DNA of 64,000 nt, taken from Rhodoferax sp. (GTDB lineage: Bacteria; Pseudomonadota; Gammaproteobacteria; Burkholderiales; Burkholderiaceae_C). The notes beneath the pieces were generated by a model. The model made no database searches, was not told the origin of the DNA, and saw nothing but the letters and a program-made list of their open reading frames with translations. The stretch is taken from NCBI GenBank assembly GCA_021738345.1, contig JAIPCE010000001.1:3596-67595 (forward strand). The letters are read 5' to 3'. Made by a program: the position numbers and the translations under genes. Positions within the stretch are counted from its first letter, which is position 1; each line of letters begins with the position of its first letter. This document shows, piece after piece, positions 14,126-22,358 of the stretch.

Positions 14126-14601
14126 CCCCATTCGTAAAGCCAGAAAGTCGGCGCTCCCGTCCCGAAGCACGGTCACAGATGGCACCCTCCTTTTAATACT
14201 CCGGGCCGACGGCATGGGCGCCGAGTGCCGTCCATGGCGAGTGGAGGCAACTCCTTGCTGGCGGGGTCGGTCTGGATCACTGCACGCTTGAAAAACTGCA
14301 GTGTGTTCAGTGGTAGCGTAGTGTCCATAAACCTGCGAATTCCTCGTGTAAGTCAAGACCAGCCTTTCATGATCATTCTGCGAGAAGCCAAAGCGGACGT
14401 TAAGGATATACTTTTCTGCCTAGGATTTATTGAACACAAATCTACTTGGGCGGTTACTAGAACAGCTTGGCGTGAGTCAGCCCTGTTTTGCCGGTCAAGA
14501 ATAGGTCGATGGGACCCGTTGCCTTTGCTTGAGGTGAAACACGTCGCGATGGGCCCCCGTAACATTTGTGTCGCAGACGTGCATTGATGAGGAAACCAGC
14601 G

Positions 14602-16344
14602 ATGACATCCGTACCCCAGCCTCCGAACAGGATAGATTTTGACCGAGAGTTCCGCGCCCAGATCGCGAAGTTAACAGGCGGGCTTTCGCCAACGGCGTTT
14701 TCGAGCGCGTGGGCCGACTGGGCTGCACATTTGGCGATCTCACCTTCACGACAGCTTGAACTCAGGAAGGAATTGCTTTCTCGAACCGAAGACACATGGA
14801 GCTTCGCGCTTAAAGCTATGACAGGCGCGCCCGTAGCACCTAGTGAAGGATTTGACGGTGCATCGGATGCACGCTTTGGCAAAGTGGATTGGACAAAATG
14901 GCCGTTCAACGTCTACGCGAGGGCGTATCAAAACAGTGTCGCGCTGGTCAACAAGGCAGTTGAAGGTGTGGATGGGGTTGACCCATACCAGGAAAAATTG
15001 GTTCAGTTTTCGGTGCGGATGTTGTTGGACACTAGCGCGCCATCGAACTACCTTGGCACCAACCCTGAACTGTTGGCTCTCACCCAATCGGAAAAAGGCC
15101 AGAATTTGGTTCGTGGAATGCGGAATTGGCTTAAGGACCTCAAGAGCACCCTGGATGGTGCTCCCCCGGAAGGAACCGATGAGTTTGAAGTTGGCCGAAC
15201 CGTTGCGGTCACACCCGGGAAGGTCATCTTCCGTAACGACCTGATTGAACTGATCCAGTATTCACCTACGACAAAAACGACTTACGCGGAGCCGCTACTC
15301 ATCGTTCCCGCGTGGATCATGAAATACTACATACTGGACCTGAGTCCGAAAAACTCACTCGTGAAGTTTCTCGTGGATCAGGGTCACACTGTGTTCATGA
15401 TCTCTTGGAAGAACCCAAGTCCGGTGGATCGCGATGTAAGCATGGATGACTACCTGAACAAGGGGTTTCGGGCAGCACTTGATGCAGTAACAACCGTTGT
15501 GCCCGATCGCAAAGTGCATTCAGTGGGCTACTGCATTGGCGGAACGTTGCTATCAATTGGCGCGGCGATGCTGGCTCACGAACGCGATGAGCGTCTCGCT
15601 TCGGTTACCTTGTTTGCCGCGCAGGCTGACTTCTCTGAACCGGGCGAGTTAGCCTACTTTATCAATGCAAGCCAGTTAGCCATGCTGGAGGCAACCATGT
15701 ACAAAAAGGGAGTACTTGAGAGTGCTCAAATGGGGGGTGCATTTGCACTTCTGCGGTCAAAAGATTTGATCTGGCAGCCCATCATCAATAACTACCTCAA
15801 GGGGCAACGCGATACGATGATTGACCTGATGGCGTGGAATGCGGATGGCACTCGCATGCCTTACCGGATGCACACGGAGTACCTCCATCGTCTCTATTTG
15901 AATAACGAACTTGCCTCCAACAAATTTTCTTTGAATGGACAAGTGATCACGCTGTCGGACATCAGCGTTCCCATGTTTGTAGTTGGCACCGAGGCGGATC
16001 ATGTTGCACCGTGGACTTCGGTTTACAAAATTGGCAATCTGGTCCGGTCTGACGATTACTCCTTCTTACTGACCTCGGGCGGCCACAACGCAGGCATTAT
16101 TGCCGGCCCCGTCCATCCAAAACGACACTTCCGACTGAAAACCAAGCGACTGAAAGCAGCGCACATCGAAAACCAGGAATGGTTGCAGACAACAGAAAAG
16201 CAACCGGGTTCATGGTGGCCAGCGTGGCAGCAATGGCTGCAGGCACATTCCAGTGGTCAAACCGAGCCCCCTCAACTTGGGGCGTCACGTAAAGGCTATC
16301 GATCTATCGAAGACGCGCCCGGCAGTTACGTGAAACAACGGTAG
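14602..16344 (+). CDS. phaC: Polyhydroxyalkanoate synthase (class I-like, with N-terminal LTGGLSP domain)
   Basis: GAGGA RBS; PSNYLGTNP, TPGKVIFRN, PAWIMKYYILDL, catalytic GYCIGG, DHVAPW, GGHNAG. Confidence 0.9.
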   Translation: MTSVPQPPNRIDFDREFRAQIAKLTGGLSPTAFSSAWADWAAHLAISPSRQLELRKELLSRTEDTWSFALKAMTGAPVAPSEGFDGASDARFGKVDWTKWPFNVYARAYQNSVALVNKAVEGVDGVDPYQEKLVQFSVRMLLDTSAPSNYLGTNPELLALTQSEKGQNLVRGMRNWLKDLKSTLDGAPPEGTDEFEVGRTVAVTPGKVIFRNDLIELIQYSPTTKTTYAEPLLIVPAWIMKYYILDLSPKNSLVKFLVDQGHTVFMISWKNPSPVDRDVSMDDYLNKGFRAALDAVTTVVPDRKVHSVGYCIGGTLLSIGAAMLAHERDERLASVTLFAAQADFSEPGELAYFINASQLAMLEATMYKKGVLESAQMGGAFALLRSKDLIWQPIINNYLKGQRDTMIDLMAWNADGTRMPYRMHTEYLHRLYLNNELASNKFSLNGQVITLSDISVPMFVVGTEADHVAPWTSVYKIGNLVRSDDYSFLLTSGGHNAGIIAGPVHPKRHFRLKTKRLKAAHIENQEWLQTTEKQPGSWWPAWQQWLQAHSSGQTEPPQLGASRKGYRSIEDAPGSYVKQR

Positions 16345-17262: not shown

Positions 17263-17301
17263 CAACGCCGCCAGCGTCATGCATGGCGGCGTTGTCTTTT
17301 T
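17263..17301 (+). terminator. Intrinsic terminator
   Basis: 11 bp perfect stem CAACGCCGCCA/TGGCGGCGTTG followed by TCTTTTT. Confidence 0.7.
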
Positions 17302-17551
17302 GTGCTTGGCGATTAAATCGTTGCCACACACTGTCCCACTTACTGTGCTGTGTTTGCACTTCCCAATGGGCAGTGGGTCAATCAAAAAACTTAACCAGCC
17401 AGAGCGCAGGTTCGGGAATCTAAAGCATTTACCTGGGGTCAGGGTCGTTTTGAAGAACATGGTTGTATCCTTCTACGCACCATCGTACAACCGCAATCCA
17501 TCGCTTGCGATTTGGATAGCAAAGATTGTTTTCATCCAGACTCACGCCATA

Positions 17552-18694
17552 ATGCACACCACCCGATTCGCTCGACTTGCCGTGCCCTTGCTCACCTCTC
17601 GCTTTCTACTGGCTCGTCGTCATCTTTTAAGCCTTTGGGTCGCGTCGGCATTGGGAAACCAGTCCGCATTTGCATTAGCCAAAAAACGATTGGAGTTTCC
17701 GAGAGACCATGGCGCCCATCCCGAATTCAGCACCGAATGGTGGTACCTCACAGGTTTTATCAATACCGCAGTGCAGGAGGCTGCATTTGGCTTTCAGGTG
17801 ACCTTTTTCCGTAGCCGAGTTCCCCAAGCACAGGCACTGAAATCCGATCTGGCAGCCAGGCAACTGGTCTTTGCCCACGCCGCCGTAACCGATGTCGCAA
17901 GTGAAAAGCTATGGCATGACCAACGCATCGCCCGTTCCTCGGGCGCGGAACCGGGCCACAACCCGGCAGACCTGGCATCTTGCAGCACCAAGGATATGTC
18001 GGTGGTGCTCAAAAACTGGACTTTGAAACGCAACGACCACACGCTAAGCACCCGCGTGGTCAATGATGTGTTTTCGCTGGACCTGACTGCAACCATGGGG
18101 CAATCGCTCCTTGCGCACGGAGACCAGGGTCTCTCACGCAAGGGGCCAGATCCTGCACAGGCAAGTTACTACTACAGTTTGCCGCAACTTCAGGTTCATG
18201 GCGACCTGAGTTTAAAGGGACGAAAAATCAAAGTCGAGACCGGCAGCGCGGCCTGGTTGGACCACGAGTGGAGCCAGGAGATGCTGCATCCGCAGGCCGT
18301 AGGTTGGGATTGGATTGGTTTAAACTTGGACGACGGCAACGCTTTGATGGCATTTCGACTACGCGACGAAAGCGGTGCGGCCCTCTGGGGTGGAGCAACT
18401 TTCCGCGATGGTGCCAGTCTGCGCACCTTCGAGCAAGACGAGGTCGATTTCAAGCCGCTGCGTACCTGGAGAAGCCCTGCGAGCCGGGCAATTTATCCAG
18501 TGGAGTGGGCCGTGACAACCCCAGCAGGCTCTTATACCGTTCGGTCGCTAGTCGACAACCAAGAACTGGATAGTCGCTCCTCTACCGGCGCAATTTACTG
18601 GGAGGGATTGTGCGATGTATTGAACCCCCTGCATGTCAGGGTTGGCCGCGGTTATCTGGAAATGACCGGCTATTCGGCTCCTATTCGGATGTAA
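17552..18694 (+). CDS. AttH/CrtC-like (carotenoid 1,2-hydratase family) lipocalin-fold protein, probable Tat substrate
   Basis: FPRDHGAHPEFSTEWWYLTG, SYYYSLPQL, AWLDHEWS, GWDWIGLNL, YWEG, GYLEMTGY; ARRHLL twin-arginine-like motif. Start uncertain. Confidence 0.85.
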   Translation: MHTTRFARLAVPLLTSRFLLARRHLLSLWVASALGNQSAFALAKKRLEFPRDHGAHPEFSTEWWYLTGFINTAVQEAAFGFQVTFFRSRVPQAQALKSDLAARQLVFAHAAVTDVASEKLWHDQRIARSSGAEPGHNPADLASCSTKDMSVVLKNWTLKRNDHTLSTRVVNDVFSLDLTATMGQSLLAHGDQGLSRKGPDPAQASYYYSLPQLQVHGDLSLKGRKIKVETGSAAWLDHEWSQEMLHPQAVGWDWIGLNLDDGNALMAFRLRDESGAALWGGATFRDGASLRTFEQDEVDFKPLRTWRSPASRAIYPVEWAVTTPAGSYTVRSLVDNQELDSRSSTGAIYWEGLCDVLNPLHVRVGRGYLEMTGYSAPIRM

Positions 18695-18703
18695 ATCATA
18701 AGA

Positions 18704-20479
18704 ATGACCCCTGAACGTACTGTATCCCCTAGCCCCAAATCGCTGTCCGGGCTGCTGCCTTTTTTGCGTCCTTACCTCGGGCATATCGCACTGGCATTGG
18801 TCTTTCTGGTCATGGCCGCAGTCTCGACTCTGGCATTTCCGATCGCGTTACGCAGCTTGATCGACACCGGCTTGGTGAACCCTGACAAAGATGCGCAAGC
18901 GATGGCGATGCGCGAGCATTTTGCCGCGCTTTTTGGCGTGGCGGTGGCGCTTGGAGTGTTCTCGGCAGCGCGTTTTTACATGGTCAGTTGGCTCGGCGAA
19001 CGGGTCACGGCGGACCTGCGCAATGCGGTCTATAGCCATGTGCTGGAGCAAAGTCCTGAATTCTTCGAAACCACTCAGACCGGTGAAGTGCTGTCACGGC
19101 TTAGCGCCGACACAACACTGGTTCAAACAGTGGTGGGCTCATCGCTCAGTATGGGCCTGCGAAATGCGGTGATGGGACTGGGCGCGCTTGGCATACTCGT
19201 TTGGACCAATCCCTATGTCATGCTGCAGGTCTTGGTCGTGTTGGTGTTGGTAGTTGTCCCCAGCCTTTGGTTTGGACGGCGGGTCCGCAAGCTGTCGCGT
19301 GCCAGTCAGGACCGCATCGCCGATTCCAGTTCGATCGCGGCAGAGGTGCTCAATGCAATCCCCGTCGTCCAAAGTTACACGGCAGAGACCCGCGAGGCCC
19401 AGAGGTACATTGCATCGACCAATGCAGCCTTCGAAACGGCGGTGCGCAGAACCAAGGCGCGCTCGCTGTTGGTTGCGTTCATCATCATTGCGACTTCAGC
19501 AGCCCTTGTGTGGGGCTTGTACCAGGGTACGCAAGCGGTGGCAGCTGGTCGAATCAGCGCCGGGCACTTGGGTCAAACCGTGGTTTACGTGATTATTCTT
19601 GCGAGCGCTTTTGCCATTTTGGGCGAGGTATATGGCGACTTGCTGCGTGCCGCCGGCGCTACCGAACGTCTGATAGAGCTGCTCAATACGCAGTCACCAA
19701 TTGTTTCGCCAACGCTGCCCACGCTGGCTCCATTGCCAAAGGCTGGTAGCACCGTAACATTTTCCAACATCGGCTTTCGCTACCCTTCCCGTCCGTTACA
19801 ACCCGCCTTGTCCGACTTTTCTTTGCATATTGATTCGGGCCAGACGGTGGCGATCGTTGGACCAAGTGGTGCGGGGAAGAGTACCATCTTTCAGCTTTTG
19901 CTTCGCTTTTACGATCCACAAGAGGGCACCATCGAGCTTGATGGCGTGCAAACACGTGCTCTGTCACTAGACGCACTGCGGCAACGTATTGGTATCGTGC
20001 CGCAGGATGCGGTCATTTTCTCCACCAGTGCCATCGAAAATATACGCTATGGTAGACCCGATGCATCTAACGCAGAAGTCTTCCTTGCTGCAAAGGCCGC
20101 GTTTGCACACGCCTTTGTCACTGCCCTTCCAGAGGGCTACAACACTTTTCTGGGCGAGCGCGGACTGCGCCTGTCAGGTGGGCAACGCCAGCGAATCGCC
20201 ATCGCCCGTGCGATGCTAAAAAACCCTCCACTGCTGCTGCTTGATGAGGCGACCAGTGCATTGGACGCGGAAAGCGAGCGAATGGTACAAGCGGCACTAG
20301 AGTCCGCGATGCGAGGCCGAACCACTTTGGTGATTGCGCACCGTCTGGCGACCGTACAAAAGGCCGATCAGATTGTGGTTCTGGACCACGGTCACCTAGT
20401 GGAAAGCGGCACCCACGCCGAACTGGTTGCCCGTGGCGGTGTTTATGCCGGCCTCGCTGCCCTGCAATTTAATGCCTAA
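18704..20479 (+). CDS. ABC exporter, fused TMD-NBD (MsbA/AbcB-like)
   Basis: Six TMs, GPSGAGKST, LSGGQRQR, LLLLDEATSALD, IAHRL. Confidence 0.93.
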   Translation: MTPERTVSPSPKSLSGLLPFLRPYLGHIALALVFLVMAAVSTLAFPIALRSLIDTGLVNPDKDAQAMAMREHFAALFGVAVALGVFSAARFYMVSWLGERVTADLRNAVYSHVLEQSPEFFETTQTGEVLSRLSADTTLVQTVVGSSLSMGLRNAVMGLGALGILVWTNPYVMLQVLVVLVLVVVPSLWFGRRVRKLSRASQDRIADSSSIAAEVLNAIPVVQSYTAETREAQRYIASTNAAFETAVRRTKARSLLVAFIIIATSAALVWGLYQGTQAVAAGRISAGHLGQTVVYVIILASAFAILGEVYGDLLRAAGATERLIELLNTQSPIVSPTLPTLAPLPKAGSTVTFSNIGFRYPSRPLQPALSDFSLHIDSGQTVAIVGPSGAGKSTIFQLLLRFYDPQEGTIELDGVQTRALSLDALRQRIGIVPQDAVIFSTSAIENIRYGRPDASNAEVFLAAKAAFAHAFVTALPEGYNTFLGERGLRLSGGQRQRIAIARAMLKNPPLLLLDEATSALDAESERMVQAALESAMRGRTTLVIAHRLATVQKADQIVVLDHGHLVESGTHAELVARGGVYAGLAALQFNA

Positions 20480-20539
20480 GGGATTGCGAAAATAGCTGAT
20501 GACCAAAGACACTACACGACGATGTCCGACGAATGGCTA

Positions 20540-20568
20540 TTGAAAACGATGTTCCCAGCTCCTAAAAT
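20540..20568 (+). promoter_or_regulatory. Sigma70-type promoter for the small-protein pair
   Basis: TTGAAA (20540-20545), 17 bp spacer, TAAAAT (20563-20568); AGGAG RBS at 20585-20589. Confidence 0.7.
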
Positions 20569-20595
20569 GCAAATAATACAATTCAGGAGTTCAGT

Positions 20596-20787
20596 ATGGA
20601 CGTTTCCCGCAGTAACCAGTATGCTGTGCAATCCACAGCAGCCCCAAAACGGGTGAATCAAACCCAGCAACGTGAACCAACACCGGTTCCCCAGGATCAG
20701 CCAAAGAAGCTGGCTGAGTTCAACGCGCGCCCTACAGTGAATTCCCAAGGCCAGACGACAGGAAGACTCCTCAATGTGAAGGCTTGA
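20596..20787 (+). CDS. Small hypothetical protein (63 aa) ending in PTVNSQGQTTGRLLNVKA
   Basis: Promoter, RBS, and a C-terminal motif shared with the next ORF. Confidence 0.75.
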   Translation: MDVSRSNQYAVQSTAAPKRVNQTQQREPTPVPQDQPKKLAEFNARPTVNSQGQTTGRLLNVKA

Positions 20788-20815
20788 TACATTCTTTGCG
20801 CTTGGACGATCTGCC

Positions 20816-21220
20816 ATGGTAGCGATCACTGCAACCAATAGCGCCACCGTCTCGCTGCAGCTTACCCTGAACAAGGCGCGGCTGCAGCAAGCGCAGCGTG
20901 AGGCAGATCGGGCGGAAAACACCGCCCAGCAATTGCGCGAGCAGGCCGACCAAGCCGAGCAGGAAGCGGTTCAAAGTCGAGACACTGTTCGAAAAGTCGC
21001 TGCCAACAACCGCCTGCAGAACCCGATCTACACCTCTCCGGCGAGTTCAAACAGCGCCGAAACCCCGGTAAAAGTTCAGAACTTCATTGAAAATCTGTAC
21101 CGTTCTACGCGTCAACAGCGCGAACAAAGTGGCAACACCCTGAAAGACGATGAAACCGCATCGCCCATCGTCAATCCACAGGGTCAGTCAACAGGTCGGG
21201 TACTCAATATACGGGTTTAG
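20816..21220 (+). CDS. Hypothetical coiled-coil protein (134 aa) ending in PIVNPQGQSTGRVLNIRV
   Basis: Q/E/A-rich helical segment; C-terminal motif shared with the upstream ORF. Confidence 0.8.
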   Translation: MVAITATNSATVSLQLTLNKARLQQAQREADRAENTAQQLREQADQAEQEAVQSRDTVRKVAANNRLQNPIYTSPASSNSAETPVKVQNFIENLYRSTRQQREQSGNTLKDDETASPIVNPQGQSTGRVLNIRV

Positions 21221-21300
21221 GACTGGCCAAGCAATAACATGCACATTTAACGCGCCGCCGTTTGGCGCATTTTTTCGTCGCAGACCATTCCTCCACCCGT

Positions 21301-21750
21301 TTATTGCAACGTTCCTTTGAGCGCCTCTGGCAACAGAAGCGGCAAGACTTCAATACCCTCGTCCAACAGCGTCATGGTCTCTTCGCGCGTTGCAGTGCCG
21401 CGAATACTCCGTGTCTGCGTCTCTTGATAGTGCATCTTCCTTGCCTCTTGCGCAAACCGGGTTCCCACATCGGTAGTACTTGCCAATACCTGCCGGGTAA
21501 GATCCAACCAGTCCAACAGCAGTTGCTTTCCCTCACCCGCATTGCTCGCCAAGGGCTGGACAGGTTCATGATTTGAATCAGATTTTGAGAACTTCAGACG
21601 AGGAACACTCAATCGCTTGCTGATCGACGGATCAGCGCAGGCAGGACACTGAATCAGACCGCCACGTTGTTGCGCCAAATAGTCGTCTTCGCCGCCAAAC
21701 CAGCCTTCGAAGACATGTCCATTACCACATTGAAGATCCAGAACTTTCAT
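21301..21750 (-). CDS. DUF1178 family zinc-ribbon protein
   Basis: MKVLDLQCGNGHVFEGWF, CPACAD, DVGTRFAQEARKMHY, IRGTAT, LLDEGIEV; ATGA-coupled to the NUDIX gene. Confidence 0.85.
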   Translation of the reverse strand: MKVLDLQCGNGHVFEGWFGGEDDYLAQQRGGLIQCPACADPSISKRLSVPRLKFSKSDSNHEPVQPLASNAGEGKQLLLDWLDLTRQVLASTTDVGTRFAQEARKMHYQETQTRSIRGTATREETMTLLDEGIEVLPLLLPEALKGTLQ

Positions 21751-22358
21751 GAAGAGACTGCACCTCGCATCACTTCGGTAGACTTCCAGTCGAGCTGCCA
21801 GGTCCCACAAAGGACATTGTGAAGCCATAGCGCACCGCTCAATGTCTTGCCGTCAGTGACCGCCCCCGAATAACACCATTCAAGCAACTCAACAGGACTT
21901 GCCACAAAAACGTCCAAAAACTCGCCGCCATCAAGTTGTCGCGGGCCAAGCGTCAGATGACGTGCAAACCAAATGTCAATTACTTCGGTTGAATAGGCAA
22001 TGAGGGGATGAATGATTCCGGCGTGCGCCCATTCATCTGCAACAAACCCGGTTTCTTCACGCAGTTCACGTTGCGCACACTCCCAACGTGACTCACCTGG
22101 ATCCAGTTTTCCGGCAGGAAACTCGATCATGACACGACCCACGGGATAACGAAATTGCCGTTCCATGACGATGCTACATGGTCCGTCGTCATTTTGCAGC
22201 AGCGCAATCACCATGACTGCACCTGGGTGCACAACATACTCACGCACCGCGGAGTTGCCATCGGGCAAGGCAACCGTATCGCTAAAGGCGTGCAATAATT
22301 GTCCCCTGAACAGCTCCCGATGTGACTTCTGAACCTCGACCAGATGCCGGTCACTCAT
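21747..22358 (-). CDS. NUDIX hydrolase (ADP-ribose pyrophosphatase-like)
   Basis: Nudix box GKLDPGESRWECAQRELREETGF; REYVVHPGAV, RQFRYP. Confidence 0.9.
   Translation of the reverse strand: MSDRHLVEVQKSHRELFRGQLLHAFSDTVALPDGNSAVREYVVHPGAVMVIALLQNDDGPCSIVMERQFRYPVGRVMIEFPAGKLDPGESRWECAQRELREETGFVADEWAHAGIIHPLIAYSTEVIDIWFARHLTLGPRQLDGGEFLDVFVASPVELLEWCYSGAVTDGKTLSGALWLHNVLCGTWQLDWKSTEVMRGAVSS

Follow-up and report, generated by a model that had tools for sequence, protein, structure and literature searches.

The window, a 64-kb stretch of DNA from a Rhodoferax sp., carries two small adjacent genes, ORF1 and ORF2, whose products end in the same type of 18-residue peptide (hereafter, the tag). 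The likeness of the two tags is far above chance, and both ORFs are real, co-transcribed genes, as shown by transcript contigs from two related loci. The pair is a module of two proteins that has not been described before, is well expressed and is under strong constraint; as for its role, we tentatively favour, at rather less than an even chance, a self-contained module in which the shared terminal hairpin and strand would act as a putative docking peptide joining both proteins.

The operon and the shared C-terminal peptide

The pair lies in a compact operon on the + strand (20540-21280), made of promoter, ORF1, ORF2 and terminator:

20540-20568, + strand: sigma-70-type promoter, TTGAAA (-35), 17-nt spacer, TAAAAT (-10); 10/12 match
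20585-20589, + strand: ribosome-binding site AGGAG, 6 nt 5' of the ORF1 ATG
20596-20787, + strand: ORF1, small class, 63 aa, with family members 62-85 aa long (E down to 1.6e-23)
20731-20784, + strand: C-terminal tag of ORF1, PTVNSQGQTTGRLLNVKA, based on profile comparison, tag search, pairwise alignment and AlphaFold2
20816-21220, + strand: ORF2, coiled-coil class, 134 aa, with 70 homologues
20816-20848, + strand: N-terminal peptide of ORF2, MVAITATNSAT, columns 1-11 invariant or nearly so
20837-21019, + strand: predicted long helix of ORF2, residues 8-68 (AlphaFold2, pLDDT about 90)
21164-21217, + strand: C-terminal tag of ORF2, PIVNPQGQSTGRVLNIRV, based on profile comparison, tag search, pairwise alignment and AlphaFold2
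21252-21278, + strand: intrinsic terminator, GC-rich hairpin GCGCCGCCGTTTGGCGC then T-run ATTTTTTCGT, 32 nt past the ORF2 stop

ORF1 is built of an N-terminal MDVS.. peptide, a disordered Q/K/E/P-rich linker and the C-terminal tag. ORF2 follows after a spacer of 28 nt; its helix is an Ala/Gln/Arg/Glu-rich coiled coil with the conserved core QQAxREAdxAE, and the N-terminal peptide is the most strongly conserved part of its family. Both proteins are devoid of Cys and Trp. Their N-termini (MDVSRSNQYAVQST... and MVAITATNSATVSLQ...) were inspected by eye for a basic n-region with a hydrophobic core, a twin-Arg motif and a lipobox Cys, and no Sec, Tat or lipoprotein signal was recognised, as the original prediction had held for Sec; the lack of a visible signal peptide suggests that both proteins are cytoplasmic. 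An Rfam scan of positions 20000-21800 returned no RNA element.

Regarding the tags, 11 of the 18 residues are identical, six of these being encoded by different codons, and the identity at the nucleotide level is 35/57; the original prediction was exact on the shared ends, their coordinates and both residue counts. As a control for chance, the stop-anchored 18-mers of all 911 six-frame ORFs of at least 40 aa in the window were compared (414,505 pairs), and the ORF1/ORF2 pair had 11 identities, the next-best pair 8. Profile-profile comparison of the two families aligned only the last 22 columns, with a probability of 96% and an E value of 3.6e-9. In this respect the two proteins are otherwise dissimilar, as had been claimed; the description needs amending at the other end because a conserved Ser/Thr/Ala-rich N-terminal peptide is common to both families. 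A matrix derived from the small-class N-termini scores those of the coiled-coil class far over background, a result for which composition may account in large part.

The consensus of the tag is P-V-V-N-x-Q-G-Q-x-T-G-R-hydrophobic-hydrophobic-N-hydrophobic-x-A. The penultimate residues are small or polar, and the last one is Ala in 84% of the small class and Ala, Val, Ser or Thr in the coiled-coil class. From Burkholderiales to Rhodocyclales, the N, Q-G-Q, T-G and N positions are nearly invariant, while the linkers and the coiled coils diverge. The most divergent coiled-coil partners have lost the hairpin and kept the terminal G-x-hydrophobic-hydrophobic-[ND]-x-x-A, so that the minimal G-x-x-(L/I)-(N/D)-x-x-A pattern, already singled out from the window, is the part that survives. 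Same-genome partners have tags that agree at 9.81/16 positions versus 9.40/16 for permuted partners (p=0.0014), a modest difference that is confounded by shared ancestry; the agreement lies mainly at positions -7, -6 and -3.

Comparison of codons among relatives gave 41% synonymous and 29% non-synonymous differences for the ORF1 tag, 41-42% and 30% for the ORF2 tag, and 40% and 10% for the first 12 codons of ORF2; these values indicate purifying selection at the protein level, as the codon usage of the two tags had first suggested. Upstream of the genes, TTGAAx-17-TA(A/G)AAT recurs at an unchanged position in 28 related loci, in which the GGAG of the ribosome-binding site also keeps its position and the other intergenic DNA is unconserved; the promoter and the AGGAG site first recognised in the window are accordingly conserved signals. 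No sigma-28-like element is conserved upstream in these 28 loci.

Expression of the pair, which the original prediction took as a point to be verified, is documented in two related loci, where single metatranscriptome contigs cover both genes. In the first (L084), two contigs of 447 and 687 nt match with at least 99% identity, and in three small libraries the pair is covered at a depth of 10-15, its flanks at 0-4; in the second (L106), which is of the same type as the window, a 593-nt contig begins past the gene of an ABC transporter. The runs that contain the window itself are DNA runs from lake-water metagenomes, with no RNA run among them.

Family extent, pairing and neighbourhood

A 30-column profile of the tag, searched against 1.84 billion representative proteins with a cut-off of E <= 0.001, retrieved at least 235 protein clusters at 50% identity; among the best 150 of the 235, the match ends at most 3 residues from the C-terminus in 148. 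The motif therefore recurs in other genomes, by the hundreds and in the C-terminal position that the original prediction expected. Two giant repeat adhesins, P0194 and P0195, were rejected as tag carriers, their scores being the sum of weak stretches with the motif absent.

The tag carriers among the clusters have just two architectures. Proteins of the small class (56-98 aa) begin with M-[DEA]-[VI]-S-S-V..., continue with a disordered K/E/P/Q/A linker and end with K-P-V-V-N-T-Q-G-Q-T-T-G-R-x-x-N-x-T-A; those of the coiled-coil class (110-196 aa) have the conserved stretch ...L-x-Q-A-R-R-E-A-D-Q-A-E.... The named members come from Comamonadaceae and Rhodocyclales, and every one is annotated as 'hypothetical'. 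ORF2 has 70 homologues of about 134 aa each. As for ORF1, a single-sequence search found almost no relatives, and a profile made from 29 genomic copies found hundreds, of 62-85 aa.

A genome scan located 32 loci, all in Rhodoferax, Curvibacter, Comamonadaceae or unclassified Burkholderiales, and in 28 of them the ORF1-like gene ends 21-55 nt 5' of the ORF2-like gene. A metagenome scan seeded with divergent small-class proteins added 80 loci; two tagged ORFs adjoin on the same strand in 34 of these, and 33 of the 34 adjacent pairs consist of one small and one coiled-coil protein, with variable gene order. One locus (L071) has a coiled-coil gene followed by two small-class genes in tandem, and in at least 10 loci whose flanks each exceed 1 kb, a small-class gene has no detectable adjoining partner. 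Overall, Burkholderiales, Rhodocyclales and unnamed metagenomic lineages all have small and coiled-coil genes that adjoin, whichever of the two comes first, and the pair is common in Betaproteobacteria of freshwater, sediment and wastewater (Rhodoferax, Curvibacter, Rhodocyclales). A search of viral contigs and of plasmids found the module in neither, and a phage or plasmid origin was rejected on this ground.

In the window, the gene order is dnaX, phaC, a CrtC-like lipocalin gene, the ABC gene, the pair, DUF1178, NUDIX, nuo, pnp and mutS, and the region is core chromosome. The gene directly upstream of the pair is:

18704-20479, same strand as the pair: ABC transporter gene, TIGR02204 MsbA_rel, 746 bits

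This gene precedes the pair in most Comamonadaceae-type loci, and the adjacency is lost in L024, L114-L116 and the other lineages examined; the ABC gene is merely syntenic with the pair. In another Rhodoferax, the pair is flanked by argA and gdh, and the neighbours in other lineages are GGDEF-EAL, FolB, 2-hydroxyglutaryl-CoA-dehydratase-like (HGD-D), PhoD and SpoU genes. The neighbouring ORFs of about 110 loci were clustered and their representatives scanned with Pfam: across lineages, no third conserved gene stands beside the pair, nor is the pair linked to any gene for flagella, secretion, maturation or a shell. The 64-kb window contains no flagellar genes.

Some further roles were discarded. 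The pair does not encode cargo of an encapsulin or microcompartment, given that neither a shell gene nor a conserved large neighbour was found and that Pfam shows unrelated neighbour functions; a phage or defence gene was dismissed for want of characteristic neighbours or HMM matches. The phaC gene 4 kb upstream raised the case of a PHA-granule protein, which was rejected because there is no phasin HMM match and phaC is unlinked elsewhere.

Predicted structures and candidate roles

Monomer models of ORF1 and ORF2 were obtained with AlphaFold2, each on its family alignment, and they agree with the original prediction of a disordered first body and a coiled-coil second one. ORF1 is modelled as disordered except for the tag (mean pLDDT 59); residues 41-60 reach a pLDDT of 71-79 and contain the hairpin T47-V48 / T54-T55. 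The ORF2 model has the helix 8-68 (pLDDT about 90), a second helix and a weak terminal hairpin, whose strands, I118-V119 / S125-G127, keep the register of the ORF1 hairpin. The strands of both models flank N-x-Q-G-Q on equivalent residues and the last 7-8 residues are unpaired, so that the terminal beta-hairpin originally proposed is predicted by two independent models at the same residues. With moderate confidence, the tag is thus predicted to be a small beta-hairpin, with N-x-Q-G-Q as the loop, followed by an unpaired terminal strand. The pTM of the monomers is low (0.32 and 0.23), and pairing between the N-terminus and the tag is absent from both monomer models.

The best reading of the tag is that of an interaction tag for one pair. 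The original prediction leaned towards a general targeting system, which does not fit with a tag found in two architectures only, these being mutual neighbours, nor with the tag HMM, which detected no third tagged ORF in the window. The two terminal peptides, the flexible or rod-like middle and the presence of the tag on both multivalent and monovalent chains point to docking by beta-strand addition. In the proposed mechanism, the terminal strand of the tag would dock by beta-sheet augmentation; ORF2 would oligomerise via its long alanine-rich helix, and hence display several tags; ORF1 would be a disordered, monovalent carrier of the tag, probably more abundant than ORF2 because its ribosome-binding site is stronger. 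ORF1 would assemble with ORF2 by contact between tags or between the tag and an N-terminal strand, and, on the scaffold formed by ORF2, it would serve as cap, as spacer or as competitor. Both the oligomerisation of ORF2 and its binding to ORF1 are what we infer from these traits. Mutual assembly is favoured because the two genes stay together through changes in order and neighbourhood, because no third gene travels with them, and because the tags of same-genome partners agree beyond shuffled ones.

A more specific version, which we regard as unlikely, is that one small beta-sheet, formed only between molecules, has two complementary halves, one being the S/T-rich N-terminal strand and the other the C-terminal hairpin with its strand; ORF2 would then form a head-to-tail cytoplasmic filament or network, with ORF1 capping or spacing it. 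If this were true, donor-strand-type assembly would be new for cytoplasmic bacterial proteins.

Several observations count against mutual assembly: the polar residues of the tag are near-invariant while the rest drifts, which a receptor would explain at least as well; small-class genes occur without an adjoining partner in at least 10 loci; the monomer models are of low pTM and do not pair the N-terminus with the tag; and the covariation of the tags is modest. Docking on a common receptor is accordingly almost as likely as mutual assembly, and can be given somewhat better than one chance in four. The receptor would be encoded elsewhere, and the tag would dock both proteins on this one conserved cellular component, in the manner of the NWETF peptide; ORF2 would then be a multivalent ligand, and ORF1 a monovalent ligand or a competitor. 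The strong conservation of N, Q-G-Q, T-G and N across orders, as opposed to the divergence of linkers and coiled coils, is in line with such a receptor, as are the solitary small-class genes and the placement of the tag at the end of a disordered linker; the covariation of partner tags at the same positions is also what would be expected if both tracked one receptor. However, no candidate receptor gene is linked to the pair in about 110 loci, and the near-constant adjacency of the tagged genes would be more usual for proteins that bind each other directly. Under mutual assembly as under the receptor reading, the tag would be an interaction peptide.

It is less probable, to a degree that we would call unlikely, that the two proteins are flagellar type III export substrates or distant relatives of YjfB and FlxA, with the S/T-rich N-terminal peptide as the export signal and the tag as a chaperone-binding or assembly site. 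Small proteins free of Cys and Trp, with disordered polar N-termini and no Sec signal, would suit this role, and the layout of E. coli FlxA is alike (MSVTIQGNTSTV..., coiled coil, charged linker, ...TIDIYV); the minimal motif may also resemble the C-terminus of YjfB. Still, the window proteins have no match to PF14070 or PF14282, neither model figures among the top families listed for 192 family members, and hhalign against FlxA and against a FlxA alignment gave a probability below 1%. The co-occurrence with flagellar or secretion genes that the original prediction suggested looking for does not hold, with none linked in about 110 loci and none of the flagellar ones in the window or in the examined flanks; moreover, the conserved promoter is of the sigma-70 type and not sigma-28.

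The hydrophobic-x-Ala-COOH end might instead be a C-terminal degron, marking both proteins for a cytoplasmic AAA+ protease or chaperone, which seems improbable. The terminal Ala of most of the small class agrees with it, as does a tag that is terminal and exposed in the models; likewise, the segment R-L-L-N-V resembles NRLLLTG, the model peptide of DnaK. Yet an 18-residue motif with invariant Asn, Gly and Gln far exceeds the needs of known degrons, and the pairing of the genes would be left unexplained.

Type I secretion through the upstream ABC transporter, with the tag as C-terminal secretion signal, is very improbable and was rejected. Its appeal lies in the position of the ABC gene, which in the window, as in most Comamonadaceae-type loci, directly precedes the pair and shares its strand, but this adjacency is lineage-specific and lost elsewhere; the transporter is MsbA-related, scoring 352 bits with the HlyB model (cutoff 726) and 219 with the PrtD model (cutoff 510); it is accompanied by neither a membrane-fusion gene nor a TolC gene; and the pair has its own conserved promoter, with a transcript contig that begins past the ABC gene. 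Finally, small genes that combine a conserved C-terminal peptide with variability in the N-terminal or middle part recall RiPP precursors with the C-terminus as core, the least probable of all these roles, as no lineage has a modifying enzyme, a protease or a dedicated exporter conserved beside the pair, the 134-aa partner with its conserved helix is not precursor-like, and the core would have no Cys or aromatic residues.

Comparison with known systems

By sequence comparison, the pair belongs to no described family in the libraries searched: none of Pfam, NCBIfam, PDB, PHROGs and PADLOC claims it, which agrees with the novelty proposed at the outset. Scans of the pair and of up to 139 relatives against Pfam, NCBIfam, PHROGs and PADLOC returned only sub-threshold coiled-coil or low-complexity noise, and the ORF1 hmmscan at E up to 10 returned 0 families; the tag profile, run against the sequences in the PDB, matched LILRB1 alone, at chance level (E > 0.5). 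The weak sub-threshold matches of the ORF2 helix include the alanine zippers of Lpp/OprI (PF11839, NF040598; E 0.005-0.015), which suggests that this helix is an Ala-rich, possibly trimeric coiled coil; unlike these lipoproteins, ORF2 has no lipoprotein signal, no Cys, and no C-terminal Lys for attachment to murein.

As for FlxA, its family is PF14282, and the E. coli protein, itself uncharacterised, is encoded in the Qin prophage and regulated by FliA. It resembles ORF2 in its S/T-rich N-terminal peptide (MSVTIQGNTSTV in FlxA, MVAITATNSATV here), in having one long coiled-coil helix followed by a charged linker, and in the conserved hydrophobic-[DN]-hydrophobic-x-V placed right at the stop, FlxA ending with ...TIDIYV. 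However, the end of FlxA is without the N-x-Q-G-Q-x-T-G hairpin, and FlxA is under FliA/sigma-28 control whereas the pair has a sigma-70-type promoter; in addition, FlxA is not known to have a tagged small partner gene. Sequence homology to the ORF2 family is undetectable with both hmmscan and hhalign: PF14282 is absent from all 13 weak matches of ORF2 and is not among the top families for 24 and 139 relatives, and hhalign of the ORF2 family gave a probability of 0.3% with E. coli FlxA and of 0.2% with a 3-sequence FlxA alignment (plasmid homologues).

The C-terminus of YjfB (PF14070) may be G-x-x-I-D-x-x-A-like, which would resemble the G-x-hydrophobic-hydrophobic-[ND]-x-x-A of the tag. YjfB is also a small protein with a polar N-terminus; it is uncharacterised and tied to the sigma-28 submodule (PMC11607428). 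The likeness advanced by the original prediction finds no HMM support for ORF1 or its relatives, with no match for ORF1 or 168 small-class relatives among the families listed and PF14070 missing from those listed for 29 and 139 relatives. The pair also differs from YjfB in its context, neither flagellar nor sigma-28, and in the middle part of ORF1, which is a disordered K/E/P/Q linker and not a helix. Should the ending of the tag and those of YjfB and FlxA prove to be one device, these orphan proteins of the flagellar regulon would gain a first mechanistic handle, and solving the pair might explain their similar build.

The pair alone opens no long-standing question; solving it would yield one more protein family and, probably, a short docking motif that is new, and the 18-residue tag is a testable handle, open to deletion, exchange or use as bait. 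The principle with which it best compares is that of tethered C-terminal docking peptides, such as the NWETF pentapeptide of chemoreceptors and the cargo-loading peptides of encapsulins. In these, too, a short conserved C-terminal peptide is preceded by a flexible linker and is common to different proteins; the tag differs from them in its unrelated sequence, in having neither CheR/CheB nor an encapsulin shell encoded near the pair, and in being carried by two protein types only, encoded together. In conclusion, the family is new to the libraries searched, while the principle of tethered terminal docking is already known.

Conserved N-terminus of ORF2 and the longer coiled-coil variants

The conservation maximum in the family of ORF2, the 134-aa coiled-coil-class protein of the pair, is the N-terminal peptide formed by residues 1-11/12 (MVAITATNSATP; window 20816-20851), which exceeds even the C-terminal tag (alignment A1/A5); columns 1-11 are invariant or almost so, also among relatives with 38% identity, and the codon differences within these 11-12 residues amount to 40% synonymous vs 10% non-synonymous.

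As for the coiled-coil variants of 160-200 aa, they have an additional conserved segment (...PTY..L..VF..AKP.L...S..QKN.V.S.L...) and have lost the N-x-Q-G-Q hairpin, retaining of the tag only the terminal G-x-hydrophobic-hydrophobic-[ND]-x-x-A. Such variants occur at L027:3331-3816, L029:4001-4513, L031:4001-4504 and L055:6144-6662, and in the loci L061, L070, L089, L098, L105 and L108.

Organization and expression of the pair

The order of the two genes flips between lineages, with the coiled-coil gene first in one set and the small-class gene first in the other, and the pair retains the same strand and close spacing; the comparison covered L039, L050, L051, L063, L067, L074, L078, L092, L094, L096 and L113 as set one, and L048, L062, L073, L075, L079-L081 and L101 as set two. 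At a single locus (L071:1645-2614), two tandem small-class genes follow a coiled-coil gene, and in one MAG of the Rhodocyclales (HZC24) two small-class genes lie on separate contigs; thus, copies per genome can exceed two.

Regarding expression, the assembled depth of the pair at L084:5989-6700 was above that of its neighbours in the metatranscriptome runs X8, X10 and X11, all very small (8-27 million letters), which suggests that this operon ranks with that organism's better expressed genes.

Other reading frames in the window

14566-16344 (+), PHA synthase gene (PhaC), ∼4 kb upstream of the pair
17279-18694 (+), CrtC-like lipocalin ORF (PF07143 and PF17186)
20512-20922 (-), antisense ORF of 136 aa, overlapping ORF1 (the 63-aa small-class protein) and the start of ORF2
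21301-21828 (-), DUF1178 ORF, 175 aa counted from the first ATG
21747-22358 (-), NUDIX ORF, upstream of the DUF1178 ORF

Linkage of PhaC to the pair was absent in the other loci examined. The antisense ORF looks like a by-product of composition, and no conservation or family evidence was seen for it. In its 175-aa version, the DUF1178 ORF overlaps the NUDIX ORF by 82 nt; its true start is probably an internal Met (MKVLDLQC...), because the homologue called in L114 has 152 aa. The N-terminal ∼150 residues of the CrtC-like ORF have no domain match, and its real start probably lies more downstream.

Database names of family members

The JGI names of P0009, P0016, P0035, P0053, P0054 and P0169 disagree with one another (among them dTDP-4-amino-4,6-dideoxygalactose transaminase, VirJ component, chromosome segregation ATPase and sorbitol PTS IIBC) and are evidently spurious. 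The last of these names agrees with sub-threshold hits to the N-terminus of SrlE that recur among small-class proteins (13 members with PF03612 and 8 with NF049924).
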